A DNA stretch of 49,561 nucleotides from Nitrospinota bacterium (GTDB taxonomy: Bacteria > UBA8248), in NCBI GenBank assembly GCA_036231405.1, contig JAZAHK010000026.1, positions 1 to 49,561 on the forward strand. Reading direction: 5' to 3'. Of this stretch, positions 1-49,561 are shown piece after piece; the stretch's first letter is position 1; each line of letters starts with the position of its first letter. The notes under the pieces were generated by a model. It did not search any database, was not told where the DNA came from, and saw nothing but the letters and a program-made list of their open reading frames with translations. The position numbers were made by a program, and so were the translations under genes.

Positions 1-120
1 TTGTTTACGTTTAGCTTCCAGTTCTTGTTTACGTTTAGCTTCCAGTTCTTGTTTACGTTTAGCTTCCAGTTCTTGTTTACGTTTAGCTTCCAGTTCTTGT
101 TTACGTTTAGCTTCCAGTTC
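1..120. repeat. 24-bp exact tandem repeat x5 (coding, ELEAKRKQ on minus strand), truncated by window edge
   Basis: ttgtttacgtttagcttccagttc at 1, 25, 49, 73 and 97, with no spacers. Confidence 0.97.
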
Positions 121-2322
121 TTGTTTCTGCTTCAAATTAGCAACTGCTTTTCTTAAGGAGGGGTTTCTCAAAATAAATTTTTGAATTTCCGGGATAAGTT
201 TATTTAATTCTTCAAGCTTTGGAGACTTTAGGGACGCGATTAATTTTTTCAAAACAGGGAGAATTTTTTGGACAGTTTCTAAATCATTAAGCATATTTTT
301 CGCTATAAATGACTTAAGGAAGCTTCTTAAATCTTTTCCTGACATTATTTTTTCATTTAACAACTTTAATTTTGAGATTGCTCTGGCCTTTTCCCTCTTC
401 GCCTCAAAGGCAGAAAATCCTTTCACTTTCGGTAGGAGTTTTCTAAGAGTCTCTAAACTCTTTTTTAAACGTAGGACTTCTTTTTTCTTTTGAGATTGTT
501 TTACCTTCCCAATTAATGTAGCTATCTCTATTAGATAGGGAGTTCCTGCATTCTTTTGAAGAAAAAGTTGTATGTCGTTAGACAATTTGGTTGCTTTAGA
601 TGAAAGAGGAGGGAACAACTTCATCTGCAATTCTTTTTTTCGTTTTCTTTCAGCAACTAATTTTCGTCTCTTTTTCTCTGCTTCTAATTTACGTTTTTCT
701 AACAATTTCTTTCTGGCCAGTTCTGCTTCTCTTTTCTTTCTAGCTAGTTCTGCTTCTCTTTTCTTTCTAGCTAGTTCTGCTTCTCTTTTCTTTCTAGCTA
801 GTTCTGCTTCTCTTTTCTTTCTAGCCAGTTCTGCTTCTTTTTTCTTTCTAGCTAGTTTTTCTATTCTCTTTAGTTCTTCTTTTCTTTTTACTTCGATAAG
901 CCTTAATTGCTCCGCTTTTTCTTCTGTCAAATTTATAAGTATTATCTTTGTGCTCTTTGACTCCACTCTGAATGCTGTCTTGACTTTTGAATGAGATAAA
1001 AGTTTCCTGTAGGTTGTTGTAGCAGGACCGGTTTTTAAGAACTTAAACGACCTACCGTAAACAGGACAGAGAGTAGCTCCCCTATCTGAGCTCCAAGAAG
1101 TCCATTTATTTTCAAAGGTACCTTCTATTTTGAAACAATATATATCCCCAAGTTCAGGATCGTTTTTTATATATTCTTCTTTTACTTCCGCTATATATTG
1201 CCATTCACTACTTCCTCTAGATAAATTATAGGTGAATTTTTTCCCTTTTCGTAAAGGAAAGATTCGTTCTACATACTTTAAATTTTCAGGTCCTATATCT
1301 TCATAAGATTTGAGAATTCCTATATGAAGCCTTTTGGTTCCATCATCGTAAGTCATTGTTTCTGGATCTAAATCCCAACCTGGAAATTTCTTATAGATAT
1401 GCATGTGCCTTGAAGATTCAAGATAGGATGTTCCGGCTTTTTTCTTGACTTTTACAGAAACTTTGGGTTTTGGTGATTTTTTCTTGGCTTTTTCGAGAAT
1501 TTTCGGTTTAGAAGAGCTTTTCTTTCCTGCAAAAACTTTTTTGCCTAACTTCCAAATTCCTCCTCCTGCTGAACCACTACTCTCTAACGTTATTTCTGTC
1601 ACTGTACCGCTGATCGTACGTGTACCGCCAGAATCCTTTTCACATTCAATTTCTTCAAGATCGCCGTCTTTGTAAATTTCACCTTCGCATGTACCTTCGA
1701 CATGTGGAGAATGGTTGAGATATGTAATTTTGTATTTTTTGCCGTCTTTAGAATATTTGATAGTTATTATGAAATCTGAAAGACCATCATTACTTGGGAT
1801 CTGTTTGGACTCAAATCCTGCCCAGTAAGGAGTTCTAGATCCGGCCTTAGTTTTTATAGAAATTATTGGTTTTAAAGACTTCTTCTTCGTTTTTGCAAAG
1901 ATGGTTGATTTTGGGGAAGCTTTCTTTTTCGCAAGAATTCTTTTGTCAATCCAGGTTGCATCTCCAGCGTTACCATCGCCAGTAAGTTCCAACTTTTTAA
2001 CAGTTCCGCCTAATGATCTTGTAGCACTTCCTGTATAAACACATACTTTTCTTTCGAGAACTCCATTTGCAAAAACTTTTCCTTCGCAAGTGCCTTCATG
2101 TTCTCCGAATGAGGTGTCATCGAGCTTGAAATTAGCTTTGTATTTTTTACCGTCTTTCGAATATTTTATTTGAATGTACCAATCTGATTCACATTCATTG
2201 CAAGATAATTCTTTGGACTCATAGCCTGCCCAGTATGGAGTTCCAGCCGCTTGTGTAGAAGTTGTCATTGTTAATGAAAAGAGAAAAACAATCACCAATC
2301 CAAAATAGAGGATTCTTTTCAT
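1..2322 (-). CDS. Large secreted modular protein, partial (>=774 aa, runs off left edge): signal peptide, two TPYWAG modules, a third domain, Lys/Glu coiled-coil repeats
   Basis: Not in the ORF track. I read the frame from ATG at 2322 to base 1 and found no stop. Starts MKRILYFGLVIVFLFSLTMTTSTQA-AGTPYWAG, overlaps the upstream stop as ATGA, and ends in (ELEAKRKQ)n. Confidence 0.9.
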   Translation of the reverse strand, partial: MKRILYFGLVIVFLFSLTMTTSTQAAGTPYWAGYESKELSCNECESDWYIQIKYSKDGKKYKANFKLDDTSFGEHEGTCEGKVFANGVLERKVCVYTGSATRSLGGTVKKLELTGDGNAGDATWIDKRILAKKKASPKSTIFAKTKKKSLKPIISIKTKAGSRTPYWAGFESKQIPSNDGLSDFIITIKYSKDGKKYKITYLNHSPHVEGTCEGEIYKDGDLEEIECEKDSGGTRTISGTVTEITLESSGSAGGGIWKLGKKVFAGKKSSSKPKILEKAKKKSPKPKVSVKVKKKAGTSYLESSRHMHIYKKFPGWDLDPETMTYDDGTKRLHIGILKSYEDIGPENLKYVERIFPLRKGKKFTYNLSRGSSEWQYIAEVKEEYIKNDPELGDIYCFKIEGTFENKWTSWSSDRGATLCPVYGRSFKFLKTGPATTTYRKLLSHSKVKTAFRVESKSTKIILINLTEEKAEQLRLIEVKRKEELKRIEKLARKKKEAELARKKREAELARKKREAELARKKREAELARKKREAELARKKLLEKRKLEAEKKRRKLVAERKRKKELQMKLFPPLSSKATKLSNDIQLFLQKNAGTPYLIEIATLIGKVKQSQKKKEVLRLKKSLETLRKLLPKVKGFSAFEAKREKARAISKLKLLNEKIMSGKDLRSFLKSFIAKNMLNDLETVQKILPVLKKLIASLKSPKLEELNKLIPEIQKFILRNPSLRKAVANLKQKQELEAKRKQELEAKRKQELEAKRKQELEAKRKQELEAKRKQ
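707..857. repeat. 27-bp tandem repeat x~5.5 (coding, KREAELARK)
   Basis: Unit ttctttctagctagttctgcttctctt with a few substitutions. Confidence 0.95.
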
Positions 2323-2760
2323 GGAGAGGCTTTCTTTTTTGCAGCTATTTTTTTGTCAATCCAAACTGCTCCTTCAGTATCGCCGCCATAACTGCCGCCG
2401 CCAGTATTGAACAGTTCTAACCTTGTAACAGTTCCGCCTAAACTTCTTTGCTTTCTTTGATAAGAATAGGTGTTACAAAGTTTTTTTTCGAGAATTCCAT
2501 TTGGGAAAACTTTTCCTTCGCAAGTACCCTCTATTGTAAAATGGAAACTAAGATCATCCATTTTGATATCGGCATAGTATTTTTTTCCGTCTTTCGAATA
2601 TTTTATTTGAATGTACCAATCTGATCCACATTCATTGCATTTGATTTCTTTGGACTCAAAACCTGCCCAGTATGGAGTTCCAGCCGCTTGTGTAGAAGTT
2701 GTCATTGTTAATGAAAAGAGAAAAACAATCACCAATCCAAAATAGAGGATTCTTTTCATG
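2150..2760. repeat. Direct duplication at 437-bp offset between the 5' parts of two adjacent genes
   Basis: 2225-2323 is identical to 2662-2760 (99 bp). 2150-2202 versus 2587-2639 differs at one base. Confidence 0.93.
2319..2759 (-). CDS. Secreted single-module protein, paralog of the N-terminus of the downstream gene (146 aa)
   Basis: Start moved to ATG 2759 (MKRIL, AAAGGA upstream). Signal peptide, CNEC, KYSKDGKKY and EGTCEG motifs. Confidence 0.88.
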   Translation of the reverse strand: MKRILYFGLVIVFLFSLTMTTSTQAAGTPYWAGFESKEIKCNECGSDWYIQIKYSKDGKKYYADIKMDDLSFHFTIEGTCEGKVFPNGILEKKLCNTYSYQRKQRSLGGTVTRLELFNTGGGSYGGDTEGAVWIDKKIAAKKKASP

Positions 2761-2947
2761 CTCCAAGATCCTTTCCACAAAAAAAGGCAATGTATGTGTT
2801 GTTTGTTTTATTTATTAAATTATACTTATCAGGGGTGACCACTACAAGTTCGACAAATATTTAAAAAATCATTATGATTTTGGTCACGCTCGTAAAATTA
2901 AATATCAACGTTCTATAGAGTAAAGAGAAGTTTGTTGATAAAAAACT

Positions 2948-3022
2948 ATGGAATCGAGAAGAAGCAAGATAATGAGTTTTGAAATAGTTTTACAGATTAT
3001 GAAAGAGAGTGAAGCTAAGTAA
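2948..3022 (+). CDS. Possible 24-aa peptide (MESRRSKIMSFEIVLQIMKESEAK)
   Basis: In-frame ATG..TAA whose stop directly abuts the next ATG at 3023. No recognised homology. Confidence 0.25.
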   Translation: MESRRSKIMSFEIVLQIMKESEAK

Positions 3023-3271
3023 ATGAAAAAACAAAATGAAAAATACTATCAATTCTCGCCAGCTGCACGAAAATTTAATCAAGCTAACGGCCATTCTGCT
3101 AGTAAAAAAGAAGTACAGGATGAAATTGATAGCACGATAAAAAAAGATAAAACACATTCTTGTATGACTAAAAAAGAATCAGAGGAATTTTGGAGTAAAT
3201 TTACAAAGGATGAAAAAGAAGTGATCGATTTTATAGACAGGGCAATTGTGAATAAAGAATTTGAGGAATAA
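3023..3271 (+). CDS. Hypothetical protein (82 aa, charged)
   Basis: ATG start, natural composition, ends 6 nt before the amidase start. Confidence 0.6.
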   Translation: MKKQNEKYYQFSPAARKFNQANGHSASKKEVQDEIDSTIKKDKTHSCMTKKESEEFWSKFTKDEKEVIDFIDRAIVNKEFEE

Positions 3272-3277
3272 AAGTCT

Positions 3278-5578
3278 ATGAATAACAAATCTTTTAAGCT
3301 TGAAGAAGCGACGATAGAGCAGTTGCATGACGCGATTCGAAATGGAGAAGTTACTTGCAAGGAGGTTGTGGAAAGGTATATAGAGCGAGCTCAAAAGTAT
3401 AACGGGGTTGCAAGCATGCTTGTGACTGAGGATGGAGAAAGTGTAGAGAAAGTTCTAGGAGTAGAGAGAGCACAGTCAGAACTTTTATTTCCAACAGAAA
3501 CCGTAAAAGCTTCCACTATCTTACCTGATTTGGATAAGTACGAAGGTCCTCCCATAGAATACGGAAGAATGGAAGCTACTTCTTCTGATCCCGAAGTCTT
3601 TCAGCAGTTTGGAATGATTGCAGGTGTTCCTGATGCGGGGCAGGTGAATGCTCTTGCCACTTTGAATATTAGGGGAGAGCGTTCTGTTACTTGTAAAGGA
3701 GAGTTTGATAAGCATCCTTCCGAAGGTCCTTTGCCTCCTGGTGCTCCTCCTGTTTGTGAGATGTTTAGGCAGTATCCTGATGCCCTTGAGCGTGCTGCGG
3801 AACTGGATGAAGAATACGGAACTAATCCAGACTTAGAAAAGATGCCTATGTACGGAGTGGTTTTTTCATTCAAGGATCCTTTTGACACGAAAGATATGCG
3901 TTCTACAGGCGGAGGCGATGCTGCATATGATATGGATTTTCCTGCAAGGGATCATATTTTAGTAGAACAACTTCGAAAAAAAGGTGCGATTATCTATGCC
4001 AAATCGGTCAGTACAGAATATAACGGCCGTGCAGATAATCCCGGAGGAAAAAATAATCCAGACAAAATTTTGCCATCTGTTCTTGGATACCAAAGAACGA
4101 CATGGGGAGGAAATCCTTCTAATTCTTACGATACAACGAGAGCAGCTTCTTTGGGTTCTAGTTCTGGTTCGGCTGTCTCTGTTAGTACGAATCTCGTTAT
4201 GGCAAGTCTCGGTGAGGAAACAAGAGCTTCTTGTAGAGGTCCTTCGAATCATAATGCGGTATCTTTGATACTTCCGCACAAGTCTATGCTAGGTTTTGAT
4301 GGTGGTGCGATTGGCGCAGATATTTACTGTGACAGAAGCGGCATTATGTGCAGGACGATTGTGGACTGTGCAAAAGTACTGGATTCTCTTAAAGATGAAG
4401 AGAACGGCTATTATGACCCTAGGGATCCCTTCACCACGATACCGCGTTCCTCGATACTGAATACTTCTTTTGCAGAACATGTACAACAGTCAGGGGAAAA
4501 AGGTTCTTTAAAGGGAACGAGGATAGGTGTTATTCGTGAATCGTTTGTCTATGATCCTGTTTCTGTCAGTGAAGAACCTATTGTGTCGGCTGCAAATACA
4601 GAACTCAAAGAAGTGTTGCATTCACATCTTGGGGCTACTTTGGTGGAATCGGTCGATCCACTTTGGGAACCAGATCCTTCTTTGGAAACGATGAAAACCG
4701 ATTTCAGAAAAGCGTTGTGTAAGTTGGTTCCCGTCTTTATGCCAGATATACTTTTTAGACTTGATGTAAATAGGGAACCTCTCTTTAAAGAATTTGCGGC
4801 ATCTATTGTTCCTACGGAATTTGCTCCGGGAGTAGTATTTGGTTCAGGAACGATGAACCCAATAGATTATTTAGTGGAACTAGCTGAGGGAAGAGTGGAA
4901 CCTCCTTCTAATTTTGATATCGCTACCATACAGCAGCAAGAACTCGCAATGTCTTTCCGTTTCCATATTCCTCAGTATTTAACTAGGCGCGCACAAGATT
5001 GGAAGGATAAAGGTTTTACGGAAACTCTTTCTGATTTCCCCGCATTGAATGCACGTTCTAAGTTTTGGGGAGATGATCATAGAGCTTCTTTTAAAAATTG
5101 GGAAGAGGTGGTGGATCCAAGGAATCCTCATGGGAACAGGCAAGGCGTGGATGAACGTATAATGCTAAGAGAACTTCTTCGTAGAGTCGATATGATGGTT
5201 CTTATTGAAAATAATTTAGATGTATTTGTTAGATTACATACACCATTCCCACCTGCGATTATTGGTGGAGCGAGTCAGCCAGGGCATTGGCAAAATATAA
5301 GATTGGAAACACGTTATGGTCCAAATGCAGGTTTGACTGAAGTGTTGGTTCCTGCAGGGTATGTGACTACCGCCTACGATCCAGTTTTTGTTCTCAGCGA
5401 AGATAGGAAACAGTATGTTGCTGCCCATTCGGAAACTCCAACTCAAATTCCTGAACCGGGACTTCCATTTTCTTTAGTATTTAGAGCAGAGCCTGGGAAG
5501 GAAGATCTGATCCTGAATGTAGCTTCCGCTTATCAAGCTGCTTCAAATCGAAGAATAATTCCACCATCTTTTTCTTGA
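3278..5578 (+). CDS. Amidase signature family protein (766 aa)
   Basis: LEEATIEQLH N-terminus, FKDPFDT catalytic Lys, GSSSGSAVSV, and GEETRASCRGPS nucleophile region. Confidence 0.9.
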   Translation: MNNKSFKLEEATIEQLHDAIRNGEVTCKEVVERYIERAQKYNGVASMLVTEDGESVEKVLGVERAQSELLFPTETVKASTILPDLDKYEGPPIEYGRMEATSSDPEVFQQFGMIAGVPDAGQVNALATLNIRGERSVTCKGEFDKHPSEGPLPPGAPPVCEMFRQYPDALERAAELDEEYGTNPDLEKMPMYGVVFSFKDPFDTKDMRSTGGGDAAYDMDFPARDHILVEQLRKKGAIIYAKSVSTEYNGRADNPGGKNNPDKILPSVLGYQRTTWGGNPSNSYDTTRAASLGSSSGSAVSVSTNLVMASLGEETRASCRGPSNHNAVSLILPHKSMLGFDGGAIGADIYCDRSGIMCRTIVDCAKVLDSLKDEENGYYDPRDPFTTIPRSSILNTSFAEHVQQSGEKGSLKGTRIGVIRESFVYDPVSVSEEPIVSAANTELKEVLHSHLGATLVESVDPLWEPDPSLETMKTDFRKALCKLVPVFMPDILFRLDVNREPLFKEFAASIVPTEFAPGVVFGSGTMNPIDYLVELAEGRVEPPSNFDIATIQQQELAMSFRFHIPQYLTRRAQDWKDKGFTETLSDFPALNARSKFWGDDHRASFKNWEEVVDPRNPHGNRQGVDERIMLRELLRRVDMMVLIENNLDVFVRLHTPFPPAIIGGASQPGHWQNIRLETRYGPNAGLTEVLVPAGYVTTAYDPVFVLSEDRKQYVAAHSETPTQIPEPGLPFSLVFRAEPGKEDLILNVASAYQAASNRRIIPPSFS

Positions 5579-5585
5579 AACAAAA

Positions 5586-5622
5586 AACTATCTTATATAA
5601 CAATTAGTTATATAAGATAGTT
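5586..5622. terminator. Perfect 16-bp inverted repeat between convergent genes (probable bidirectional terminator)
   Basis: aactatcttatataac-aatta-gttatataagatagtt. Confidence 0.65.
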
Positions 5623-5655
5623 AATATAAATATAGTTAATAAATTACGTTAAGTA

Positions 5656-6051
5656 TTAAAGCTTCAGTCCTAATCTTTTTGCTACTTCTTCCGCATCATC
5701 AGCTCTGTTATAGTCCTGTGCTAAATCCCCATCACCAACAGGACTTTTTACTGCAAAAAAAGTTGCTGGACCATCGATTGCGCATACTCCGTGCCTGGTA
5801 TTCCTAGGTATATGTACCAGGTCACCTTCTTCTATAATCGTTTCTTCATCACCCAAAACTTTTCTCATTTTTCCTTCTAAGACTAAGACAAACTGTTCTT
5901 CATTGGGATGAAAATGTGGCGGTGGACCTTCTCCTTCCTGATAAGTTACAAATCCAACTTTGATTAGTTCTCCTGCTACTGATTTCACACCAAGTCCTTC
6001 GACTTTGTCCGATGTTTGTACTTCCATTTCCGATACTTTATAAATAGGCAT
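5656..6051 (-). CDS. Cupin domain protein (paralog 2)
   Basis: PPHFHPNEEQF...GDLVHIPRNTRHG cupin motifs 1 and 2. Confidence 0.92.
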   Translation of the reverse strand: MPIYKVSEMEVQTSDKVEGLGVKSVAGELIKVGFVTYQEGEGPPPHFHPNEEQFVLVLEGKMRKVLGDEETIIEEGDLVHIPRNTRHGVCAIDGPATFFAVKSPVGDGDLAQDYNRADDAEEVAKRLGLKL

Positions 6052-6099
6052 TTTTATTTCCTTTAAAATTTTTGTTGAAAAATAACTGTATAAAATCCG

Positions 6100-6504
6100 T
6101 TACTTCGGACTTGTATTTTTTAAACCTAGTTTTTCAATGATTCCTTCTGCATCTAAAGCTTTATTATAGTCTTGAGACATATCTCCATTGCCTACAGGAC
6201 TCTTGGCAGCAAAGAAAGTGGCAGGACCATTTATCGCACATACACCGTGTCTAGTATTTCTAGGGATATGAATTAGATCTCCTTTTTCAACAATTCTTTC
6301 TTCATCTCCTAGGACTTTTCTCATTTTACCATCGAGAACGAGTATAAATTGTTCTTCGTTTGGATGAAAATGTGGGGGAGGTCCTTCGCCTTCTTGGTAT
6401 GTGACAATTCCTACTTTTATTAGTTCACCTGCTACAGTTTTTCCTGTCGCAGGACCAACATTGGATTTTTTTGCTTCCATTTCAGAAATTTTATAAATAG
6501 GCAT
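6100..6504 (-). CDS. Cupin domain protein (paralog 1)
   Basis: Same motifs, AGGAGG RBS, closely similar to its neighbour. Confidence 0.92.
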   Translation of the reverse strand: MPIYKISEMEAKKSNVGPATGKTVAGELIKVGIVTYQEGEGPPPHFHPNEEQFILVLDGKMRKVLGDEERIVEKGDLIHIPRNTRHGVCAINGPATFFAAKSPVGNGDMSQDYNKALDAEGIIEKLGLKNTSPK

Positions 6505-6530
6505 TTCTCAATCCTCCTAAGTTGAAAATA

Positions 6531-7607
6531 CTATTGATTTAATTTGATTGTTTGTCCAGTCTTAGAAGATTCCTCAATTGCATTAGTCACTAATAGAGTT
6601 TGTCTGCCTTCCTTGGCAGTTGTATGATTACAAGGTTTTCCAGTAGAAAGGTGATCGAGCCATCCTCTAGTTTCGTTAGAGATCGGGCCCCAATAGTCTC
6701 CCATTGCCCAATCACCCGAAGAATTCGTTTGCATAAATAACATATTAGCATTGTGTCCTGGAACATAAGCATGCGGTACTCCTTTATCTGTAAATAACAC
6801 ACTATCTTTATTGTCTGTGTCTAGAAGTATCACTCCATCCTGACCTATAACTTCAAACCTTGCACTTTGTCCGTATGTTGGATACTTTGCCGGCAGCACA
6901 CAAGAGATTCCTAAATTTACAACAGTTCCATCATTGAATGTAATTATTGTCCATGTAACATCTTCTTTATCAAATCCCATCTCTTTAAAAACTATAGAGT
7001 TTCCTCTTGCAAAAACCTCCACAGGATATAAATCTTTTAAAAACCAGCATGCCATGTCTACGTAATAGGTTAATACATCATTCACAGGAGATGCATGTGG
7101 AGAGCGGGTCAATGGTTGAACAATTTGGGCTCTAGTACTATAGACCCTAGATTGGATTCCGATAATTTTCCCTAGTCTCCCTTTCTCAACCTGTTCTCTT
7201 GCGAGCATCCATCTTCTATCGTGTCTTCTTGAATAACCAATTCTCAGATCTGTACCTTTTTCCTCAAGTTTTTTTATTATGATGTCTGCTTCTTCTATGG
7301 AAAGAGTCAGAGGTTTCTCAACAAAGATTGGTTTCCCAAGTTCAATAGCTTGTAGTATCGATTCAGTGTGATCGTGTTCTGGCGTGGAAATGAAGACTGC
7401 ATCCACTTCGGGGTTAGAAATGATTTCGTAGTTGTCTCCAGAAGAGTAGTCTGCTGTAACATTTTCAGCTAAATTTTCTGCCTGCTTAGGATCTTTGTCA
7501 GAAAGTGCTAGATACCGAACAGAAGGATGACTAGATGCAAGACTCGCACGTAAACTCCCAATTCTCCCACAACCGATAACTCCAATTCCGATTTGTTTTT
7601 TTTTCAT
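6531..7607 (-). CDS. Gfo/Idh/MocA family oxidoreductase
   Basis: IGVIGCGRIG Rossmann motif, VFISTPEHDH, FVEKP. Confidence 0.92.
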   Translation of the reverse strand: MKKKQIGIGVIGCGRIGSLRASLASSHPSVRYLALSDKDPKQAENLAENVTADYSSGDNYEIISNPEVDAVFISTPEHDHTESILQAIELGKPIFVEKPLTLSIEEADIIIKKLEEKGTDLRIGYSRRHDRRWMLAREQVEKGRLGKIIGIQSRVYSTRAQIVQPLTRSPHASPVNDVLTYYVDMACWFLKDLYPVEVFARGNSIVFKEMGFDKEDVTWTIITFNDGTVVNLGISCVLPAKYPTYGQSARFEVIGQDGVILLDTDNKDSVLFTDKGVPHAYVPGHNANMLFMQTNSSGDWAMGDYWGPISNETRGWLDHLSTGKPCNHTTAKEGRQTLLVTNAIEESSKTGQTIKLNQ

Positions 7608-7625
7608 TCTGTATTCCTCTTGTTT

Positions 7626-8627
7626 TTATTGAAAGTCGGAATCCCATACTTTTGCAAGTCCTCTCATTTTTTCTTCTTCAAATTTAGGTTTCCCAGAGCA
7701 ATTAGTAATTTCATCAATTTGATTTTCTCTAGAGAATCCAATAAGAACGGACGAGACAGCGTCGTTACTTAATGCAAAGCGTATGGCAGATTGAGAAATT
7801 GTCTCGTTATTTTCTCCGATTATTGTTTTTATTTTTCCTGCTCTTCTAACATCTGTATCGTATTTTGATCCTAAAGAAAGTAAGGGAATTTCTCCTTTTA
7901 GAAAATTCGTGTCGTTTGTCAAAGCACCTAAAGCAAGGGCACGGATAACAAAGATTCCCATACCTAATTTTCTACATTTTTCGATTAAGAGATTATAATT
8001 GATAGCACTAAAATTCTGGGGAACCGATAAACCTGCACTAGGGTTAAGTAAATTGTAATATATCTGAATAGTTTGAAACTCATTTGTGCTTACTACTTTA
8101 TCTAAAGTTTTAGGGTCTCCTAGTCCAGTGATACCGAAATATCTCACCATATTTTTTTTCCTTAGTTCTTTGAATGCTTCTAAAATTCCATTGTTTTTGT
8201 AAATATCGTTTGGGGAAATAGAAAGTGGGACAGGCCATATCCTGTCTTCTGTGATGAAGTTATGTATTTGTATTATTTCTATATGGTTTCTTTTCAGTCT
8301 ATCTAAACTTCTTTCTACAGACTGCATTACTTCTTTGTATGGATTTTCTAGTTGTTCAGGAAGAAGCCTGATCTTTGTTCCGATGATTACTTCTGAAGAT
8401 TCCTCATTTAGGATTCTGCCAAGATTATTTTCAGATTTCCCGCTACCATATGCGGCCGCTGTGTCGAAGTAAGTAATTCCGTTATTTAGCGCTTTGGTAA
8501 TTGCAGAATTTTGCTCTTTTTTATCTTCTTCAACCATAAGTCTACTGATTCCACCTGTACCAAAGCCAATTTCTGAGACTATGATATCTGTTGTGCCAAG
8601 TTTTCTATATTCCAAATTGTTCTTCAT
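7626..8627 (-). CDS. Aldo/keto reductase
   Basis: YRKLGTTDIIVSEIGFG, FDTAAAYGSGKSE, IGTK, SLDRL..IQIH. Confidence 0.92.
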   Translation of the reverse strand: MKNNLEYRKLGTTDIIVSEIGFGTGGISRLMVEEDKKEQNSAITKALNNGITYFDTAAAYGSGKSENNLGRILNEESSEVIIGTKIRLLPEQLENPYKEVMQSVERSLDRLKRNHIEIIQIHNFITEDRIWPVPLSISPNDIYKNNGILEAFKELRKKNMVRYFGITGLGDPKTLDKVVSTNEFQTIQIYYNLLNPSAGLSVPQNFSAINYNLLIEKCRKLGMGIFVIRALALGALTNDTNFLKGEIPLLSLGSKYDTDVRRAGKIKTIIGENNETISQSAIRFALSNDAVSSVLIGFSRENQIDEITNCSGKPKFEEEKMRGLAKVWDSDFQ

Positions 8628-31588: not shown

Positions 31589-31870
31589 TCATTTGTCTAA
31601 AACAGAGATGAAAAGTTTTTTTGTTTTTTCTTTTTCATAAGGTAAAATTTCCACAGATTTCACGTCATAAAGTTTACTTAGTTGTTTCCCTATTTGATTC
31701 ATTTTTTCTTCTTCAACCTGACTAACTATAACCATTCTTGTTATTTTTTTGTCCACAGTTGGTGCGGCAACTATTGATTCTATATTATAACTGCGCCTAG
31801 TAAAAAGACCGGCAACATGAGACAGAACTCCTGGATGATTATTTACTAGTATTGAGAAGACTTGTCTCAT
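31589..31870 (-). CDS. ilvN: Acetolactate synthase small subunit, short ACT-only (IlvN-type)
   Basis: VNNHPGVLSHVAGLFTRRSYNI; ATGA overlap with the upstream large subunit. Confidence 0.88.
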   Translation of the reverse strand: MRQVFSILVNNHPGVLSHVAGLFTRRSYNIESIVAAPTVDKKITRMVIVSQVEEEKMNQIGKQLSKLYDVKSVEILPYEKEKTKKLFISVLDK

Positions 31871-33561
31871 GATTTGACTTCCGCGTCAGATTGATTTAGT
31901 TGCATCTCGCTGTTGGGTGCGCCAGCTGGAACCATTGGCCATACATTTTCCCCTTCATCAACATGGAAATTGATTACTACAGGCCCATCAATCTTAGATG
32001 CTTCTTCTAGAGATGGAACAACCTGTTCTAAAGAGTCTACATCAATTCCGTGAACTCCATATCCTTCGGCTATTACTTTGAAATCAGGATTCTTGGGATA
32101 GTAAGAATGAGAGTATCTTTTTTCAAAGAATAATTCCTGCCACTGCCTTACCATTCCAAGGTACCCATTATTTAATATAGCTACTTTAACTGGAATCCCA
32201 TATTGGGATGCAGTTGCTAATTCCGTTAAAGTCATCGCAAAACTTCCATCACCGTCGATAAGCCATACTTCTTTTTCGGGGCGCGCAATTTTTGCTCCTA
32301 TTGCAGCAGGGAGGCCAAAGCCCATTGTCCCTAATCCTCCAGAAGATACCCAACTGTTGGGTTCGTTAAAACGAATAAATTGGGCAGCCCACATTTGATG
32401 TTGCCCAACTCCTGTTGCATAGATTGCATCGCCTTTAGTTAATTCTTGTATTTTTTCAATGACATACTGAGGCTTGATGGGGCCGCCAACTTTATAATTA
32501 AGAGGAAAATCAGATTTCCATTTTTTTATTTTCTTTAACCAGTTGTCGCAGTGGAGTTCTCCAACATCTTCATTTAACACCTTAAGTACTTCTCTGACAT
32601 TGCCGAGGATTGGAATATCTGTTGAAATTCTTTTTCCTAGTTCAACGGGGTCTATGTCAACGTGACAAATTTTAGCTTGCTTGCAAAATCCAGAAGTATT
32701 TCCTGTAACACGGTCGTCAAAACGTCCTCCTAGATTGATTAATAAATCGCAATCATCTAGCGCGAAGTTTGCATACGCAGTTCCATGCATTCCAGGCATC
32801 CCAAGAAAAAGGCTGTCCGTTCCTGGAAATCCTCCTAGCCCAAGTAATGTATTGATAACAGGGATTTTGGATTTCTTGGCAAACTTTGTTAGTTCACCTG
32901 ATGCTTTTGCTTTTAATATCCCTGCTCCTGCTAGAATGAGAGGTTTTTTTGATTTTTTGAGTGTAGAGATTAGTTCACCTATCCCCTCAATGCTTTCTTT
33001 AGAAAGTTCCGATTGGAATTCTTCTCCCGCATATGAAGTTTCAGATCTCTTGTAAGTGGTTTTTTTTACCTGAATATCTTTAGGGAAATCTATCAGCACA
33101 GGCCCTGGTCTTCCTGTAGTGGCAATTTTAATGGCCTCTTTTGTGATGTTTTGAATATCCTTTACATCTTGTATTAGCCAATTGTATTTTGTGACTGGAA
33201 TGGAGCAACCGTAAGTATCTGCTTCTTGGAATGCGTCAGTTCCTATCATAGGAGACGCAACTTGGCCTGTAATAGCAATCATAGGAACGGAATCCATATG
33301 AGCATTGGCAAGACCAGTAATGATATTTGTTGCGCCAGGTCCGGAAGTTGTTATTACGGCTGCAATTTTACTGCTAACTCGCGCATATCCATCAGCCATA
33401 TGCGCGGCACCTTGTTCATGTCGAGTTAGAATGTGTGGAAATTCTGATTGAAGAAGTTCGTCATAAAAAGGCATTATTGCACCACCTGGAATTCCAAATG
33501 CAATTTCAACACCACCTGCTTTTAGTTCTTCTAACATAATCTGAGAACCATTTAATTCCAA
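31867..33561 (-). CDS. ilvB: Acetolactate synthase large subunit (copy 2)
   Basis: GIPGGA, RHEQGAAH, GDGSF...NNGYLGMVRQWQ. Confidence 0.95.
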   Translation of the reverse strand: MELNGSQIMLEELKAGGVEIAFGIPGGAIMPFYDELLQSEFPHILTRHEQGAAHMADGYARVSSKIAAVITTSGPGATNIITGLANAHMDSVPMIAITGQVASPMIGTDAFQEADTYGCSIPVTKYNWLIQDVKDIQNITKEAIKIATTGRPGPVLIDFPKDIQVKKTTYKRSETSYAGEEFQSELSKESIEGIGELISTLKKSKKPLILAGAGILKAKASGELTKFAKKSKIPVINTLLGLGGFPGTDSLFLGMPGMHGTAYANFALDDCDLLINLGGRFDDRVTGNTSGFCKQAKICHVDIDPVELGKRISTDIPILGNVREVLKVLNEDVGELHCDNWLKKIKKWKSDFPLNYKVGGPIKPQYVIEKIQELTKGDAIYATGVGQHQMWAAQFIRFNEPNSWVSSGGLGTMGFGLPAAIGAKIARPEKEVWLIDGDGSFAMTLTELATASQYGIPVKVAILNNGYLGMVRQWQELFFEKRYSHSYYPKNPDFKVIAEGYGVHGIDVDSLEQVVPSLEEASKIDGPVVINFHVDEGENVWPMVPAGAPNSEMQLNQSDAEVKS

Positions 33562-33572
33562 TGGAACGTCTC

Positions 33573-35342
33573 CTAATTATCTGGCAGTGCGCTTAGTTTT
33601 GCGCTAAATTTTTCTTTTCTTGAATCGTAGACGATCATGTCTTTGGTGCTCCCTCCAGCAGGAATCATGGGGAAAACTAATTCATCTGGATCGACGTTTA
33701 CGTCAAGAATAAAAGGTCCAGGAGTAGTCGTCATTTTTTTGATTGCGGGACGCAATTCAGTTTTCTTTGAAATTGACATTCCACATGCTCCATATGCTTC
33801 AGCAAGTTTTACATAATCAGGGGAACAGTCCAATTCTACTTCACTGAAACGCCTGTCCATAAATAAATCCTGCCATTGTCTAACCATCCCTAAACTTGCA
33901 TTGTTTAGAATGAAGATTTTAACGTTGATTTTGTATTGTACTGCAGTTGCTAATTCTTGAGAAACCATTTGGAAACTTCCATCGCCAGCAATATCGATCG
34001 CGATTTTGTCTGGTCTTGCAAGTGCAGCACCTATTGCAGCAGGGAACCCAAAACCCATAGTCCCTAGTCCTCCTGATGAAATGAATTGTCTTGGGAAAGT
34101 ACAGTTGTAAAACTGTGCTGCCCACATCTGGTGTTGTCCTACTTCAGTTGTAATAATAGCTTTATCTCCAATTTCTTCGCTAAGTGTGACTATAGCTTCC
34201 TGAGGTTTAATGGGTTTTCCTCTTTGCGAACTATAACTTAGGGGATATTTTTTTATCAGGTTTTGAGTTTTTTTAATCCAAACTGGTCTAGTTTGTGATT
34301 TAATAACTTTGTTTATTTCAGATAGTATGAGTTTTGCATCTCCAACAACGGGGATATCCGCATGTTTGTTTTTCCCAATCGCTGTTGGGTCAATATCTAT
34401 ATGTACTATCTTTGCGTTTTTAGCAAACTCAGAAACTTTACCTGTCACTCTATCGTCAAATCTCGCACCAACTGCAATTAAAAGATCACATTCCGCTACG
34501 GCGTAATTAGCATAAGCAGTACCGTGCATCCCGAGCATACCTAAAGAGAGTTTATGATTGTTTGGAAATGCACCAGCACCCATTAAAGTCCATGTAACTG
34601 GGATCTCTGCCTTTTTCGCTAGTGACAGAAGTTCTTTATGAGCATCGGAATGTATCGCACCACCACCTACATACAATATCGGTTGCTTGGAATTTTTTAT
34701 TGCTTCACATACGCGTTTTATTTGTCGTGGATGACCTTGTGTTGTTGGTTTATAACCCCTAATACTAACTTTTTGATTTATAAATTCTTTAGCATTTCCT
34801 AATATTACGTCTTTAGGTATATCTATAAGCACCGGTCCTGGTCTTCCGGTTCGAGCGATATGAAATCCTTCCTGAAAAATTCTAGGCAAGTCTTCAGTAT
34901 TTTTTATCAAGTAACTGTGTTTTGTTACTGTTCTCGTCATACCTATAATATCTGCTTCTTGGAAAGCATCATTTCCGACCATTGAGGTTGCAACTTGACC
35001 AGTAATGCAAATTAAAGGTACTGAATCCATGTACGCGTCAGCTATGCCTGTTACTAGATTCGTTGCACCTGGTCCTGAAGTGGTTAGACAAACCCCGACC
35101 TGTCCACTTGCCCTTGCATATCCTTCGGCCATATGAGCAGCACACTGTTCGTGTCTAGTAAGAATATGTTTTATATTGTTTCCTTTTAGGAAAAGGTCCA
35201 AAACCGTTATTAAAACAGCTCCAGGATGACCAAATATAAATTCTACCTTTTCTCTTGCTAGACTTCTTAAAATAAGTTCAGCGCCAGAAAATTCAGATTC
35301 GTTAATTTGGGTTGCCTTTTTCATAGCCATGTAAATCCTCAT
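33573..35342 (-). CDS. ilvB: Acetolactate synthase large subunit (copy 1, probably IlvI-like)
   Basis: RHEQCAAH, TSGPGATN, GDGSFQM...NNASLGMVRQWQ. Exact start Met uncertain. Confidence 0.95.
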   Translation of the reverse strand: MRIYMAMKKATQINESEFSGAELILRSLAREKVEFIFGHPGAVLITVLDLFLKGNNIKHILTRHEQCAAHMAEGYARASGQVGVCLTTSGPGATNLVTGIADAYMDSVPLICITGQVATSMVGNDAFQEADIIGMTRTVTKHSYLIKNTEDLPRIFQEGFHIARTGRPGPVLIDIPKDVILGNAKEFINQKVSIRGYKPTTQGHPRQIKRVCEAIKNSKQPILYVGGGAIHSDAHKELLSLAKKAEIPVTWTLMGAGAFPNNHKLSLGMLGMHGTAYANYAVAECDLLIAVGARFDDRVTGKVSEFAKNAKIVHIDIDPTAIGKNKHADIPVVGDAKLILSEINKVIKSQTRPVWIKKTQNLIKKYPLSYSSQRGKPIKPQEAIVTLSEEIGDKAIITTEVGQHQMWAAQFYNCTFPRQFISSGGLGTMGFGFPAAIGAALARPDKIAIDIAGDGSFQMVSQELATAVQYKINVKIFILNNASLGMVRQWQDLFMDRRFSEVELDCSPDYVKLAEAYGACGMSISKKTELRPAIKKMTTTPGPFILDVNVDPDELVFPMIPAGGSTKDMIVYDSRKEKFSAKLSALPDN

Positions 35343-42297: not shown

Positions 42298-42942
42298 GTG
42301 AGTGATTTTGATTTAACAATGACTGACAAACTATTGTCAACGACCAGATCTGTCAGAAAGCGTTTAGATTTAGAAAAAGAGGTCGATTTAGATGTGATTA
42401 ATGAATGCCTTCGACTTGCAATTCAGGCTCCCACTGGTTCTAATAAACAGGGATGGAGATGGATAGTTGTTTCTGACGAAGATGCCAGAAAAAGTTTGGC
42501 CGATATTTACAGGACTGGGAATGGTCACTATTTAGAATCTGGAAAGTTGAATGCGTCTGATGGAGGGGAAACACAGAATGAACGTGTTTTCGACTCGGCT
42601 ATTTATCTTGCAGAGAATCTTGAGAAAGTTCCAGTACATGTAATCCCATGTATTCAGGTAAAAGTCCCGCTTAATATGAAAACTACTCTTCCATCTGCTT
42701 TATATGGATCGATTATCCCAGCCATATGGAGTTTTCAGTTGGCGCTTCGATCACGTGGTTTGGGCTCAGTCTATACTACTCCACATTTGGAAAAACCAAT
42801 AAAGGAACTTCTCAAAATTCCAAAAGATTTTATCCCGGTCGCCTTAATTCCTGTTGCTCACACTATTGGCAAAAATTTTAAAGCTGCTAATAGAAAACCG
42901 TTAGAAGATGTAGTTTTTATGAATATTTGGAATAATTCTTAA
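42298..42942 (+). CDS. Nitroreductase family protein
   Basis: TTRSVRKRLD, QAPTGSNKQGWRWIVV, LALRSRGLGS. Confidence 0.9.
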   Translation: MSDFDLTMTDKLLSTTRSVRKRLDLEKEVDLDVINECLRLAIQAPTGSNKQGWRWIVVSDEDARKSLADIYRTGNGHYLESGKLNASDGGETQNERVFDSAIYLAENLEKVPVHVIPCIQVKVPLNMKTTLPSALYGSIIPAIWSFQLALRSRGLGSVYTTPHLEKPIKELLKIPKDFIPVALIPVAHTIGKNFKAANRKPLEDVVFMNIWNNS

Positions 42943-43778: not shown

Positions 43779-43811
43779 GAATTCGTGGGTTTAAAGAATA
43801 GGGCGAAGGTA

Positions 43812-44327
43812 ATGTCGAATACCAAGGATGGGATTGAGTATATAAGATTAAAAAATAGCAGGGTTTTGGCTATGGTCGTACGCCAAGATTTCGATAGTTA
43901 TGATTCTTTTCCTCCTTTTTTGGATAATGATTCGGAAAAAGAGCATCTTGCAAAAGCGTATTCTGGGCAAAATTTTGAGTCTGAAAGAAGGACTAAAGCT
44001 CATATTACCGATGACGAATTGCCGTTGCAGATAATTTTACTTAATCGAAGTCCGGGTTCTGTTGTAAATCCTCACTATCATCAGGTTACCGAACGTCCTA
44101 ATAACGAGACTCGTCATCAAATAATGGTTTGTAGAAATGGTTCTATGAAGATTGGTGTTTATTCCAAAGAGGGCGAATTTGCGGGAGATGTAATTTTAAA
44201 GTCCGGAGACTTAATATTGATGTATGAAGGTCATAGAATAGAATTTCTTGAAGAAAATACGAAAGCAATTGAAATTAAAGAAGGCCCATTCCCTGAAACA
44301 GACGAAGCAGATAAAGTAGATTTTTAG
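43812..44327 (+). CDS. Cupin-fold protein (WbuC-like)
   Basis: [22 protein letters not shown]. Start placed at ATG 43812. Confidence 0.65.
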
Positions 44328-45274
44328 CTCTGTATTAGCCCCAATTCTTGGGCAAATAATTCCGCAGCCTTTTTGAATGATAATTGGTGTTTTGAGGTAG
44401 GTTTTACAGGCCTATGATATTTCCCTAGAAAACGATTTTTTGATGACCATATTTCTCTTACAAGTAAAACAGAATCAAGTTTTCCATCACTTTTCTTGTC
44501 AATATATATATAATAAAAAAGACTGTTTTGGTTAGTTAATTTTCCAAAATAAGCTTCACCTGCATGGTAAATTTCTTTTTTGAATTCACTCGATGGGATA
44601 ATGAAGGAGAGATTCCTGCTTCCGAAAATTGAATCAACCACTTTAGCTTTGTATGTTTTCCCATTTATTTTTTTAAAAATAGAAAATGTGTTTTCAGCGA
44701 GTTTAGGTTTTGTTTGACTAAGTGCAAATGAAGAAATTTTCCCATAGATAGATTTGTTTAAATTTTTTGAAAGGTTATTTGATAATCCATAAATAAAGAT
44801 AAGTAGAGTTGCTGCAATGGCAATAACAGGGAAACGAAAAATCGAACTTTTTGGATGTAGACTAGGCTTTCCTCTATTGCTGGAAACATCCTCTCGTATC
44901 TCAGATATAGATTTATACATATCTTCTTCGGAAAGATCGACTGGTTCTGGTTTCCATTCTGGTTCTTCAACAATTGCTTTTGAGGATGTAGATGTAACTG
45001 TGGCAGAAGCAGAAGTTGCAGCAGGTTGTGCGGTAAAAAAATCTGCATTGATTTTTGTGTAACTTGACCATTTTGAAGGTAAATCCCCTTCAGCGAAGAT
45101 TGCTTCAACAGGGCAGGCAGGAACACACGCTGCACAATCAATGCACTCTACTGGGTCAATAAACAACATGTTGCTGGAACCGTCTTCTGCTTCATGGATA
45201 CAGTCTACAGGACATACATCAACGCAAGCAGTATCTTTCGTATCCACACATGGTTCTGCAATTACATGTACCAT
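44324..45274 (-). CDS. 7Fe-type ferredoxin fused to a linker, one TM helix and an unknown C-terminal domain (316 aa)
   Basis: C9-x7-C17-x3-C21P-x2-C25 and C44xxC47xxC50xxxC54P; hydrophobic [17 protein letters not shown] at about aa 148-164. Confidence 0.88.
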
Positions 45275-45509
45275 TCAGCAAAATCCTTTGGATAGGGAAG
45301 GTTAAACTAAACACTCCCCACATTAATATATTAACTTTTATTTTATAGCAATAGTGTTTTCTAAATTTAGTTTTTCAAATATCTTCTATTTTATTCTAAT
45401 TTGTTAATTAAAATAACAAGTTCGTTGAGCTTTTTTTCTACTTAGATAATAATCGAGTTTCAATCAACTTTATTTAACTTTAGGATTTTTTTAGGAGGTA
45501 TCTCTTTCA

Positions 45510-48108: not shown

Positions 48109-49561
48109 ATGGGTATCCCTAGAAGATTCAGAATACAATTTCTTATATTCCTTCTATGTTTTTGTTTCTCCTCATTATCTAATATGTATCCATTAGAGGC
48201 ACGTCAAGAAGGCGAGTTAGAGAATTCTTTTATATTCGGGTTGAAGTTGTTTCAAGATGGACTTTATCTTCCAGCAAGAGAAGCTTTTTTAGATTTTTTG
48301 AAAAAAAACGGAAGCGGTAGAAATGCGGTTATTGCTAGATTTCTACTAGCAGAGTCTTTCAGAAACACCAAGCAATATGATTTGGCAAAGAAAAATTTTC
48401 AACTACTATTAGCTGGTACAACCAACAGGTCAGAAAAAATTTATCTGAAGTCTTATATCAGACTTGGTGAGATTCTTGAACTAGAAGGGAGAGTTATAAA
48501 AGCAGCTGCCAACTACGAGAGCGCGTTTGCCAATCTTATTAGGATGAAATCAAAAAAAGAATCCTATTTATCTCGTTTGATTACGAAGAAATTCTTTTGG
48601 GCATCAATTGCTAGGTACGAGAAAAAAGATTGTAAGAAGTCTATTGAGAATTTAGTCCAACTTGAGAAAATCTCTGATTGGAAAGACTCTGTTCAGGAAG
48701 AAAGCTATGCCTACTATCTTTTTGTTAGAGGAGATTGTGCACTTAGAGCTAACAATTTTAAGTTGTCTAGAAACTACTTCAGTAAAATTCTCTCTTTAAA
48801 AACAAGTGCAAGTTTTCGAGATCAATCAAAATTTTATTTGGCGGTATCGTTTGATAAATCCAGAGAGACTGAAAGATCACTAGTTCTTTATCTTCAGATC
48901 GTAAATCAAAAAAAAATAACTAATCTTGATGTTTTTCTTCTTTCATTATGGCGTTTGTCGGAAATCTCAGAAGAGGGTTTGAAATGGAACAATTCTTTGA
49001 GATATCTAAAATTATTCAGGAAAACAATAGAGATTCGAAAATTGGTAGAAGACGAAAAATTTTCTGAATTTTATGGATTATCAGAAGTACGGATAAAAGG
49101 AATTAAGAATTTTTTAGAACAGGTTAAACAGAGAAATTTAGAGATAAAAACACACGATAATGTATATAAGAGAAAAGTAATTGATCGTAAAAAAAAGATT
49201 GAAAAAATTGACAAAAAATACTTAGAGGAAGTTAAAAAGCGAGGGGAAAAAGTCCAAAAAAGAAAACAGGCGTATCGCAAAGCTTTAATTAATTACAAAA
49301 AGAAAGTACGTAAATTGGAAGAGGAATATCTTGAGAAGGTGAAGGAGAGGAAGAAGAAGGTACGTGCGCTGAAAGTAGAGAATACCAAGAAACTTGATTC
49401 TTACAAAAAGAAAATACGTAGATTGGAAGAGGAATATCTCGAGAAGGTGAAGGAGAGGAAGAAGAAGGTACGTGCGCTGAAAGTAGAGAATACCAAGAAA
49501 CTTGATTCTTACAAAAAGAAAATACGTAAATTGGAAGAGGAATATCTCGAGAAGGTGAAGG
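48109..49561 (+). CDS. Exported TPR-repeat protein with a Lys/Glu coiled-coil repeat region, partial (runs off right edge)
   Basis: Not in the ORF track. Frame read open from ATG 48109 to the end. Signal peptide MGIPRRFRIQFLIFLLCFCFSS..., TPR-like GLKLFQDGLYLPAREAF and ARFLLAESF. Confidence 0.88.
   Translation, partial: MGIPRRFRIQFLIFLLCFCFSSLSNMYPLEARQEGELENSFIFGLKLFQDGLYLPAREAFLDFLKKNGSGRNAVIARFLLAESFRNTKQYDLAKKNFQLLLAGTTNRSEKIYLKSYIRLGEILELEGRVIKAAANYESAFANLIRMKSKKESYLSRLITKKFFWASIARYEKKDCKKSIENLVQLEKISDWKDSVQEESYAYYLFVRGDCALRANNFKLSRNYFSKILSLKTSASFRDQSKFYLAVSFDKSRETERSLVLYLQIVNQKKITNLDVFLLSLWRLSEISEEGLKWNNSLRYLKLFRKTIEIRKLVEDEKFSEFYGLSEVRIKGIKNFLEQVKQRNLEIKTHDNVYKRKVIDRKKKIEKIDKKYLEEVKKRGEKVQKRKQAYRKALINYKKKVRKLEEEYLEKVKERKKKVRALKVENTKKLDSYKKKIRRLEEEYLEKVKERKKKVRALKVENTKKLDSYKKKIRKLEEEYLEKVK
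49294..49561. repeat. 108-bp coding tandem repeat, ~2.5 near-identical copies, truncated by window edge
   Basis: Unit EEYLEKVKERKKKVRALKVENTKKLDSYKKKIR[RK]LE, with gaggaatatct at 49321, 49429 and 49537. Confidence 0.95.

Follow-up and report, generated by a model that had tools for sequence, protein, structure and literature searches.

The closest described relatives of the protein considered here are the FdxA-type 7Fe ferredoxins, which are free, soluble proteins of 77 to 107 amino acids, e.g., 2v2k (105 residues), 1bc6 and 1h98 (77 to 78 residues), and the Azotobacter ferredoxin I (FdI) entries (106 residues). The window, i.e., the whole 49,561-nucleotide stretch of contig JAZAHK010000026.1 from a Nitrospinota bacterium, contains a gene (44324..45274, minus strand) whose product resembles these ferredoxins over residues 3 to 89 (E-values of 1.7e-30 to 1e-16) but runs 236 residues further through a linker, a transmembrane (TM) helix, and a domain that is predicted to be periplasmic. 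The gene is a single open reading frame (ORF) of 316 amino acids with an ATG start and no internal stops, and AAAGGA lies 9 to 14 nt 5' of the ATG. With 316 residues, a TM helix, and a second domain, the protein falls outside the small, single-domain, soluble range of FdxA (about 77 to 115 amino acids), and databases label it "ferredoxin" or, wrongly, "PreA subunit". It places a known carrier in a novel tethered arrangement, combined with a new family of periplasmic domains. We tentatively read it as a swinging-arm, membrane-tethered electron carrier that rides on a functional envelope module.

Domain architecture of the fusion protein

The ferredoxin head (residues 1 to 80; 45035..45274, minus strand) is matched as an FdxA-type 7Fe ferredoxin by NCBIfam and PDB sequence searches. 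Its cysteines C9, C17, C21 (followed by P22), C25, and C44-x2-C47-x2-C50-x3-C54 (followed by P55) contain the FdxA pattern C-x7-C-x3-C-P ... C-x2-C-x2-C-x3-C-P, which is invariant in 20 sequences, and all eight are in register with those of solved 7Fe ferredoxins. From the alignment to these solved proteins, and presumably as in Azotobacter FdI, C9, C17, and C54 would be the ligands of the [3Fe-4S] cluster and C21, C44, C47, and C50 those of the [4Fe-4S] cluster, with C25 as an extra cysteine. Pfam finds only Fer4 families in the 316-residue protein, all within residues 4 to 66. Of the FdxA equivalog profiles tested (NCBIfam NF045480 and NF045490), FdxA_Actino covers residues 1 to 99 (E-value of 1.2e-31) at 109.1 bits, below its cut-off of 125, and FdxA_Protbact covers residues 1 to 92 at 83.5 bits, below its cut-off of 135; the linker stands in place of the last 12 profile positions, which form the C-terminal helix region of FdxA. 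When the first 100 residues were compared with PDB sequences, 36 distinct sequences matched at an E-value of 1e-5 or better, and the first 28 are of the 7Fe type, led by 2v2k_A (1.7e-30) and followed by 1bc6_A, 1h98_A, 1bqx_A, and the Azotobacter FdI series. Both 1bc6_A (77 residues) and 1h98_A (78 residues) terminate exactly at ...DFF, the position of the junction between head and linker (nt 45035, after codon 80). The proposal of the first-pass annotation that residues 1 to 80 are a complete FdxA-type ferredoxin ending at DFF is thus borne out by the PDB and NCBIfam matches. The best-segment identity of the head to FdxA heads from other phyla, whether free or otherwise fused, is 57 to 70%.

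The regions of the protein differ in conservation, for which identities were averaged over 19 full-length relatives and dN/dS ratios were calculated against three congeners (dS of 0.6 to 2.0, which makes the ratios rough). The head is 82% identical to that of the window, with a dN/dS of 0.024 to 0.030. It is followed by a linker rich in Ala, Pro, Ser, and Thr (residues 81 to 113, 33 residues; 44936..45034, minus strand), which is probably flexible (predicted local distance difference test [pLDDT] score below 50). The linker has a mean identity of 34% and a dN/dS of 0.16 to 0.33; in relatives it is 33 to 42 residues long, and its composition is kept (A, 32%; P, 20%; G, 11%; E, 10%; and K, 8%) whereas its sequence is not. 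The cytoplasmic juxtamembrane segment (residues 114 to 147; 44834..44935, minus strand; dN/dS of 0.18 to 0.34) is 58% identical over residues 114 to 135 and carries the conserved motif (M)Y-x2-(L/I)S-x2-R-x-(D/E)(V/L)-x3-RG at residues 119 to 135, which is common to orthologues that have a different head (see below).

The single TM helix (residues 148 to 166; 44777..44833, minus strand) was assigned from hydropathy and AlphaFold2 (AF2) models; it has a mean identity of 40% and a dN/dS of 0.13 to 0.15. A Kyte-Doolittle scan gave one hydrophobic segment, with the best 19-residue window at residues 143 to 161, and AF2 placed a helix at residues 148 to 171 in the full-length model or 149 to 172 in the model of the module. 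The helix terminates in a conserved SNNxSK..N sequence at the periplasmic face. As the head has no signal peptide and there is one TM helix, the protein must, by this predicted topology, be bitopic, with a cytoplasmic head and a periplasmic C-terminal domain. A single hydrophobic segment, a bitopic protein, and a probably extracytoplasmic C-terminal domain had all been anticipated in the first-pass annotation, and the topology derived here agrees with it.

The periplasmic C-domain (residues 167 to 316; 44327..44776, minus strand) has a net charge of +15 and no cysteine. It was modeled by AF2 on alignment A2, which comprises the C-terminal 177 residues of 14 proteins of both head types (mean pLDDT of 83.2, predicted TM score [pTM] of 0.74). 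In the model, the TM helix and a short helix lead into an antiparallel sheet of six strands, an extra short helix being inserted between strands 3 and 4, and a long helix closes the C-terminus. Among the residues invariant in both subfamilies in A2 are N167, N173, S215, P227, E240, D259, G264, E274, and S277, and D214, R220, S262, D267, and Y286 are nearly so. The C-domain has a mean identity of 48% and a dN/dS of 0.035 to 0.052. It is under constraint comparable to that of the ferredoxin (about 0.04 versus 0.03) and, given this ratio and the residues invariant across both subfamilies, is a functional domain and no mere anchor.

One conserved element of the C-domain is the 13-residue stretch at residues 257 to 269, in which 20 full-length relatives all share D259, S262, G264, and D267. 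Its center is a β-hairpin loop, D259-K-K-S262-D-G264-K-L-D267 (DxxSDGxxD/E; 44474..44500, minus strand), located between strands 110 to 120 and 129 to 138 of the C-domain model, and it is a candidate metal-binding loop. In the DxDxDG calcium loop, acidic or amide ligands occupy positions 1, 3, 5, and 9, and glycine occupies position 6. The corresponding residues here are D259 (position 1), D263 (position 5; N in two rows of the other head type), G264 (position 6), and D267 (position 9; E in one row), whereas at position 3, where the canonical loop has a ligand, the ferredoxin-headed form has K and the other form has G. The DxxxDG-like loop pointed out earlier is conserved; that it may bind calcium is, with K or G at this position, a guess from its sequence.

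Neither the TM helix nor the C-domain contains a cysteine, and no His or Met is conserved in both subfamilies. Because such ligands are missing, there appears to be no visible route for electrons across the membrane, and the C-domain is probably not an electron wire; the redox link across the membrane to a periplasmic partner that had been envisaged from the DNA finds no ligands to rest on.

The C-domain is an undescribed family, as the first reading of the sequence had suspected when it called the domain unknown. Foldseek gave no match in the PDB at an E-value of 0.001 or better, a PDB sequence profile search gave none at E-values up to 10, ESM Atlas gave no match of 0.9 or more, and no family came up in more than two of the 14 members given a lenient Pfam scan. 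In a VIA-align comparison with 48,161 representatives, the best Z value was 5.7 (2w56_B, root mean square deviation [RMSD] = 4.6 Å, 101 aligned residues), seven chains had Z values of at least 5, and none reached 8; a second VIA search also had a best Z value of 5.7, for C1QBP (3rpx_A; RMSD = 3.2 Å, 90 aligned residues) and a polo-box (6mf5_A; RMSD = 3.8 Å, 81 aligned residues). By the calibration of the method, Z values of about 5.7 are background, and the middling fold matches (VC0508, p32/C1QBP, polo-box, porins, TipC2, and START-like proteins) are mutually unrelated.

Since free 7Fe ferredoxins of 77 to 78 residues do stop at the position of the junction, a sequencing or assembly error, or a miscalled frame, could in principle have merged two genes, one for a free ferredoxin and one for a membrane protein downstream of it; nothing else speaks for this, and we regard it as next to impossible. 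Three DNA runs from two studies yielded Logan contigs that span nt 45035 without indels, a contig-level form of the check on reads that had been suggested, although one of the three runs may be the source sample of the window itself. Contig X1 (44200 to 45113) differs from the window by seven substitutions, and X2 (44660 to 45360) and X3 (44840 to 45130) by none. A search with the full-length protein covered 41 genomes, the window's own and 40 relatives. In the window's family (25 genomes, G000 to G024), 21 genomes, including the window's own (G000), have a stop-free match over residues 1 to 312-316, and several of them are assemblies of one or two contigs; three others match only in part, where contigs end, and in one (91% complete) the only match is a free-type ferredoxin. 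In a collection of 5.8 billion proteins, 40 protein clusters of 312 to 355 amino acids cover 96 to 100% of the query at 46 to 83% identity. The composition and length of the linker, moreover, are under selection. A stop after NADFF with a separate downstream gene was found in none of the genomes or contigs, and the artifact was rejected on the indel-free contigs, the stop-free relatives, and the full-coverage clusters.

Distribution of the fusion and of its membrane module

The juxtamembrane motif, the TM helix, and the C-domain form a module that, in searches with the A2 profile, is present as a single copy in 46 of 51 genomes of the phylum: in 39 of 41 relatives within the window's family in addition to the window's own genome (40/42), in 6/7 genomes of the sister family f4, and in neither the one genome of f2 nor the one of f3. 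We read the window's family as the Nitrospinaceae. The single-gene novelty proposed at first is shared across the family and is not peculiar to this genome, because 40 of the 42 family genomes have it. Among named genome records, 2 of the 80 kept loci carry the whole architecture (one Nitrospinota metagenome-assembled genome [MAG] and one "bacterium"), and in the other 78 the similarity is confined to the head, with or without part of the linker; Tara and other marine data sets contributed cluster members as well. In a whole-protein search of representatives, 5 of the 150 matches listed reach the C-domain, and the rest are dominated by the ferredoxin head, so this search is a poor guide to distant relatives of the C-domain. 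The A2 profile searches gave 19 matches of 86 to 336 amino acids (5 ferredoxin-headed and 14 without a Pfam domain) and one longer protein; these are only two architectures, in word-indexed searches that distant relatives could escape.

The second architecture is that of f4 (297 to 312 amino acids), in which a non-ferredoxin head of about 70 residues and a basic linker (KGKTRRKR) precede the shared module. An Atlas model of P0270 is matched by proteins of 60 to 64 residues over residues 2 to 65 (TM-scores of 0.83 to 0.89), and these weak leads suggest an SH3-like head; Pfam and NCBIfam find nothing in it. The SH3-headed set comprises L091:2715-3614 and P0269 to P0282 (297 to 310 amino acids), one of which is titled "hypothetical protein [Nitrospinota bacterium]". 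The two forms are homologous from the juxtamembrane motif onward, through the TM helix and the C-domain (20 to 25% identity, profile E-values of 1e-54 to 1e-68). Like the window protein, the SH3-headed orthologues are single copy and have the same topology logic, with the basic cluster on the same side of the TM helix as the head, whereas they have no Cys clusters, a basic linker, and another gene neighborhood. As the sister-family orthologue bears an SH3-like head on a homologous module, the module must have existed before it was fused to ferredoxin, and the ferredoxin is a swapped-in head.

The SH3-headed gene of the sister family was located at L091:2715-3614 (plus strand), at L092:5176-6075 (minus strand), and in L093 to L095, and in three genera it lies in a conserved block of hpt, a 98-residue protein, the module, a major facilitator superfamily (MFS) protein, and a 535-residue protein. 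A bitopic anti-sigma factor was also considered as the identity of the module and rejected: no anti-sigma Pfam family was found (DUF4179 in only 2 of 14 members, E-value of 0.052), and the neighbors are dapB, the cupin, and the aminotransferase genes (hpt and MFS in the sister family), with no gene for an extracytoplasmic function (ECF) sigma factor.

A tree of 88 heads (86 columns) was constructed, which is rough, its bootstrap values not being fully settled. In this tree, 17 fused heads of Nitrospinaceae form one clade (support of 99/97) inside the mainstream FdxA radiation, and the larger clade that holds them also contains 60 free representatives. The other FdxA-like gene of these genomes, in the window's own genome, encodes a free ferredoxin of 103 residues (L102:6010-6321, minus strand; G000:C46) with 7Fe-type Cys spacing; it is very divergent and stands on a branch of 3.11, separate from the mainstream clade, and its context of unrelated metabolic genes gives no lead. 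Because the free ferredoxin branches outside the clade of the fused heads and the 60 free representatives, mainstream FdxA in these family genomes exists in tethered form only.

A further family (A3; L004, L016, L023, L033, L034, and L077; proteins P0048 to P0121) also joins an N-terminal FdxA head (57 to 69% identical to the window protein over residues 1 to 80) to a linker and a membrane anchor. Its members have 411 to 430 amino acids, an acidic linker predicted to be flexible, two to three hydrophobic segments, and an unrelated C-terminus; the anchor is polytopic, whereas that of the window protein is a single TM helix. The A3 loci with matches past the head are from Poribacteria, Planctomycetota (Engelhardtia), and Chloroflexota. 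Comparison of A2 with A3 by hhalign gave a probability of 1.0%, BLASTP similarity stops in the linker/TM region, and the A3 heads form a separate clade (96/83). Membrane tethering of FdxA has thus arisen at least twice, given the unrelated C-terminus and the separate clade of the A3 heads. The conserved C-terminal region of A3 closes in ...HYAKLKG, and this family is apparently undescribed as well.

A possible role in electron transfer at the membrane

Nitrospinaceae are the main nitrite oxidizers of the ocean and fix CO2 by the ferredoxin-dependent reductive tricarboxylic acid (rTCA) cycle, with electrons entering at very high potential. According to passages in the papers by Lucker et al. 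2013 (PMC3578206) and by Kop et al. 2024 (PMC10839748), it is unresolved how Nitrospina obtains the reduced, low-potential ferredoxin that its rTCA cycle requires, with NUO-2 named as a candidate for ferredoxin reduction.

The reading that we prefer, with less than even confidence, is that the intact 7Fe ferredoxin would be held at the cytoplasmic face of the membrane by an Ala/Pro-rich arm of 33 to 42 residues and would shuttle single electrons over a short range between redox enzymes bound to the membrane or located near it. The periplasmic domain would retain its ancestral role, which may be localization, assembly, or ligand binding, and would in this way fix the position of the carrier; no electrons would cross the membrane via this protein. 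We infer the carrier function, the flexibility of the arm, and the placement by the C-domain from the intact and constrained head, the kept composition and length of the arm, the family-wide single copy, and the second, independent FdxA fusion.

Several observations weigh against this proposal. The ferredoxin gene has no co-directional neighbor that would point to a partner, and the upstream content differs between genera. In the sister family, the module bears an SH3-like head, which is no redox domain, so the core job of the module can do without a ferredoxin, and the head might serve as a regulatory input and not as a carrier. The tether would also hinder electron delivery to the soluble pyruvate and 2-oxoglutarate:ferredoxin oxidoreductases (POR and OGOR). 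The full-length AF2 model has a mean pLDDT of 58.9 and is below 50 over residues 1 to 147, which makes it uninformative on the head and the linker. With a second NuoF as the marker of NUO-2, in counts that are affected by MAG incompleteness, only one NuoF was found in the window's genus (4/4), g2 (5/5), and g9 (4/4), and two or more were found in g8 (20/23) and two in the SH3-headed genera g13 to g15. The fused gene does not co-vary with the second NuoF, which argues against a strict tie to NUO-2.

The main rival is a redox-, oxygen-, or iron-sensing input, in which the Fe-S head would report the cytoplasmic redox or Fe-S state to an envelope or signaling module, or would itself be released or occluded in response, having taken the place of the SH3-like head. 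Azotobacter FdI is linked to redox-dependent regulation, and a sensor would fit a single-copy module that predates the fusion and has an orthologue with another head, a C-domain constrained like the head, and a juxtamembrane motif conserved across both head types. On the other hand, the head is 57 to 70% identical to FdxA heads of other phyla, its whole carrier surface being preserved at a dN/dS of about 0.03. Neither the protein itself nor its consistent neighbors include an output domain, a sigma factor, a kinase, or a transcription factor, and Pfam gives nothing signaling-like. We therefore consider sensing unlikely, but a serious competitor. Far less probable is a narrower scheme in which the tethered FdxA would be the dedicated acceptor and shuttle of reverse electron transport driven by the proton motive force, its periplasmic domain docking under the nitrite-oxidizing machinery; if true, the protein would be the missing link from a membrane complex to the ferredoxin-dependent rTCA enzymes and would form part of a trans-envelope nitrite-to-ferredoxin supercomplex patch.

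Some further observations concern the energy metabolism of these genomes. Of the two NuoF matches that g8 genomes mostly have, one is about 562 amino acids long, and marine lineages with small genomes may be without the second NUO set known from Nitrospina gracilis. The window's own assembly yielded no molybdopterin ORF of about the size of NxrA; nxr genes are described as hard to bin in a passage of Kop et al. 2024 (PMC10839748). The same genome has, in a row at 2722..7779 (minus strand) of L106 (G000:C23:1-19000), genes for a NarJ-like chaperone, a 956-residue molybdopterin oxidoreductase, and a 505-residue Fer4_11-NrfD fusion, which resemble a Psr/Ttr-like complex with fused electron-transfer and membrane subunits.

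Neighboring genes and comparison with tethered carriers

The order of genes at the locus is argH-like lyase, lysA-like decarboxylase, dapF, nitroreductase, dapB, cupin, ferredoxin gene (opposite strand), class I/II aminotransferase, folK, and panC, and this housekeeping block keeps its synteny in nine further family loci that were mapped. In those loci, the dapB-cupin and ferredoxin-aminotransferase junctions mostly hold inserts of 1 to 3 kb (e.g., upstream of the ferredoxin gene, a lipoprotein in L113 and a receiver-tetratricopeptide repeat protein in L109), and the gap between the cupin and ferredoxin genes is 55 to 550 bp. The cupin-like protein of the window (180 residues; 43785..44327, plus strand) is convergent with the ferredoxin gene, and its stop region overlaps that gene by 4 nt. 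Pfam finds no family in it, and NCBIfam gives a WbuC-like match below the cut-off (1.2e-9); H97, H99, and H150 (HxH...H) are invariant. The cupin is 63 to 73% identical across genera and is more conserved than its ferredoxin neighbor. A second cupin copy is present elsewhere in most family genomes; in the window's own genome it is at G000:C28:56850-57347.

This arrangement raises the question of whether the tethered ferredoxin is the dedicated electron partner of the WbuC-like cupin metalloprotein in a family-specific membrane pathway. The 3' ends of the cupin and ferredoxin genes face each other within 2 kb in 37 of 40 module-bearing family genomes, with spacings from overlap to about 1.7 kb as derived by hand from coordinates; this does not hold for G003 (where the query used found no cupin), G046 (on another contig), and G047 (665 kb away). 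In f4, the cupin orthologue is located elsewhere in all four genomes that have both genes. The short gap kept between flanking junctions that mostly hold inserts, and the conservation of the cupin across genera, would also fit a partnership. However, the whole lysA-dapF-dapB-cupin-ferredoxin-aminotransferase-folK-panC block is syntenic, so the adjacency may be inherited order; the two genes are convergent, with no co-transcription; and the cupin is also present without the ferredoxin fusion (f2 and f4) and as the second copy noted above. Because the whole block is conserved, the adjacency would be a lead and no proof, and we judge the partnership improbable.

Between the ferredoxin gene and the aminotransferase gene is a divergent, AT-rich intergenic region (45275..45509), in which a scan for promoters and terminators did not rise above shuffled sequences (7 promoter-like sites versus a shuffle mean of 5.6). 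The runs containing the stretch are all marine or seawater metagenomes, and no RNA run is among those listed; run X20, which is guessed to be RNA, has a 182-nt contig over 44637 to 44817 that was not counted as evidence of transcription. Rfam and tRNA scans of the window gave nothing. Elsewhere in the window, a nitroreductase-family gene (42298..42942, plus strand) lies between dapF and dapB inside the lysine/diaminopimelate block, and a tblastn counterpart is absent from the nine other family loci mapped. Two tandem genes for large subunits of thiamine pyrophosphate enzymes (acetolactate synthase-like), followed by one small-subunit gene, occupy 31867..35342 (minus strand), and two tandem Cupin_2 genes occupy 5656..6504 (minus strand). 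The ORFs at the ends of the window, 1..2322 (minus strand; 774 residues so far) and 48109..49560 (plus strand; 484 residues so far), have no Pfam match at an E-value of 1e-6 or better.

No description of the architecture was found in the literature searched, with subscription journals and PDF supplements lying outside the search, so the prior characterization that would have deprived the first-pass annotation of its novelty did not come to light; the text supplement of the N. gracilis genome paper (Lucker 2013) has no "7Fe" or "FdxA" entry. The module defines a new family of periplasmic domains whose cytoplasmic heads are interchangeable, and if the head is only a sensor, the module is still new, with a narrower interest. 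As the one mainstream FdxA of the family, invariably tied to the membrane, the protein offers a concrete, clonable handle on low-potential electron handling.

Tethered carriers are known from other systems: cytochrome c_y of Rhodobacter is membrane anchored, and the E2 components of 2-oxoacid dehydrogenases have Ala/Pro-rich swinging arms. The proposed carrier would resemble both by analogy, in that a small carrier domain is borne on a long Ala/Pro-rich tether that is probably flexible, and it has no sequence relation to either. Unlike cytochrome c_y and E2, the window protein combines a cytoplasmic Fe-S ferredoxin with a C-terminal anchor and a large, conserved, predicted periplasmic domain.

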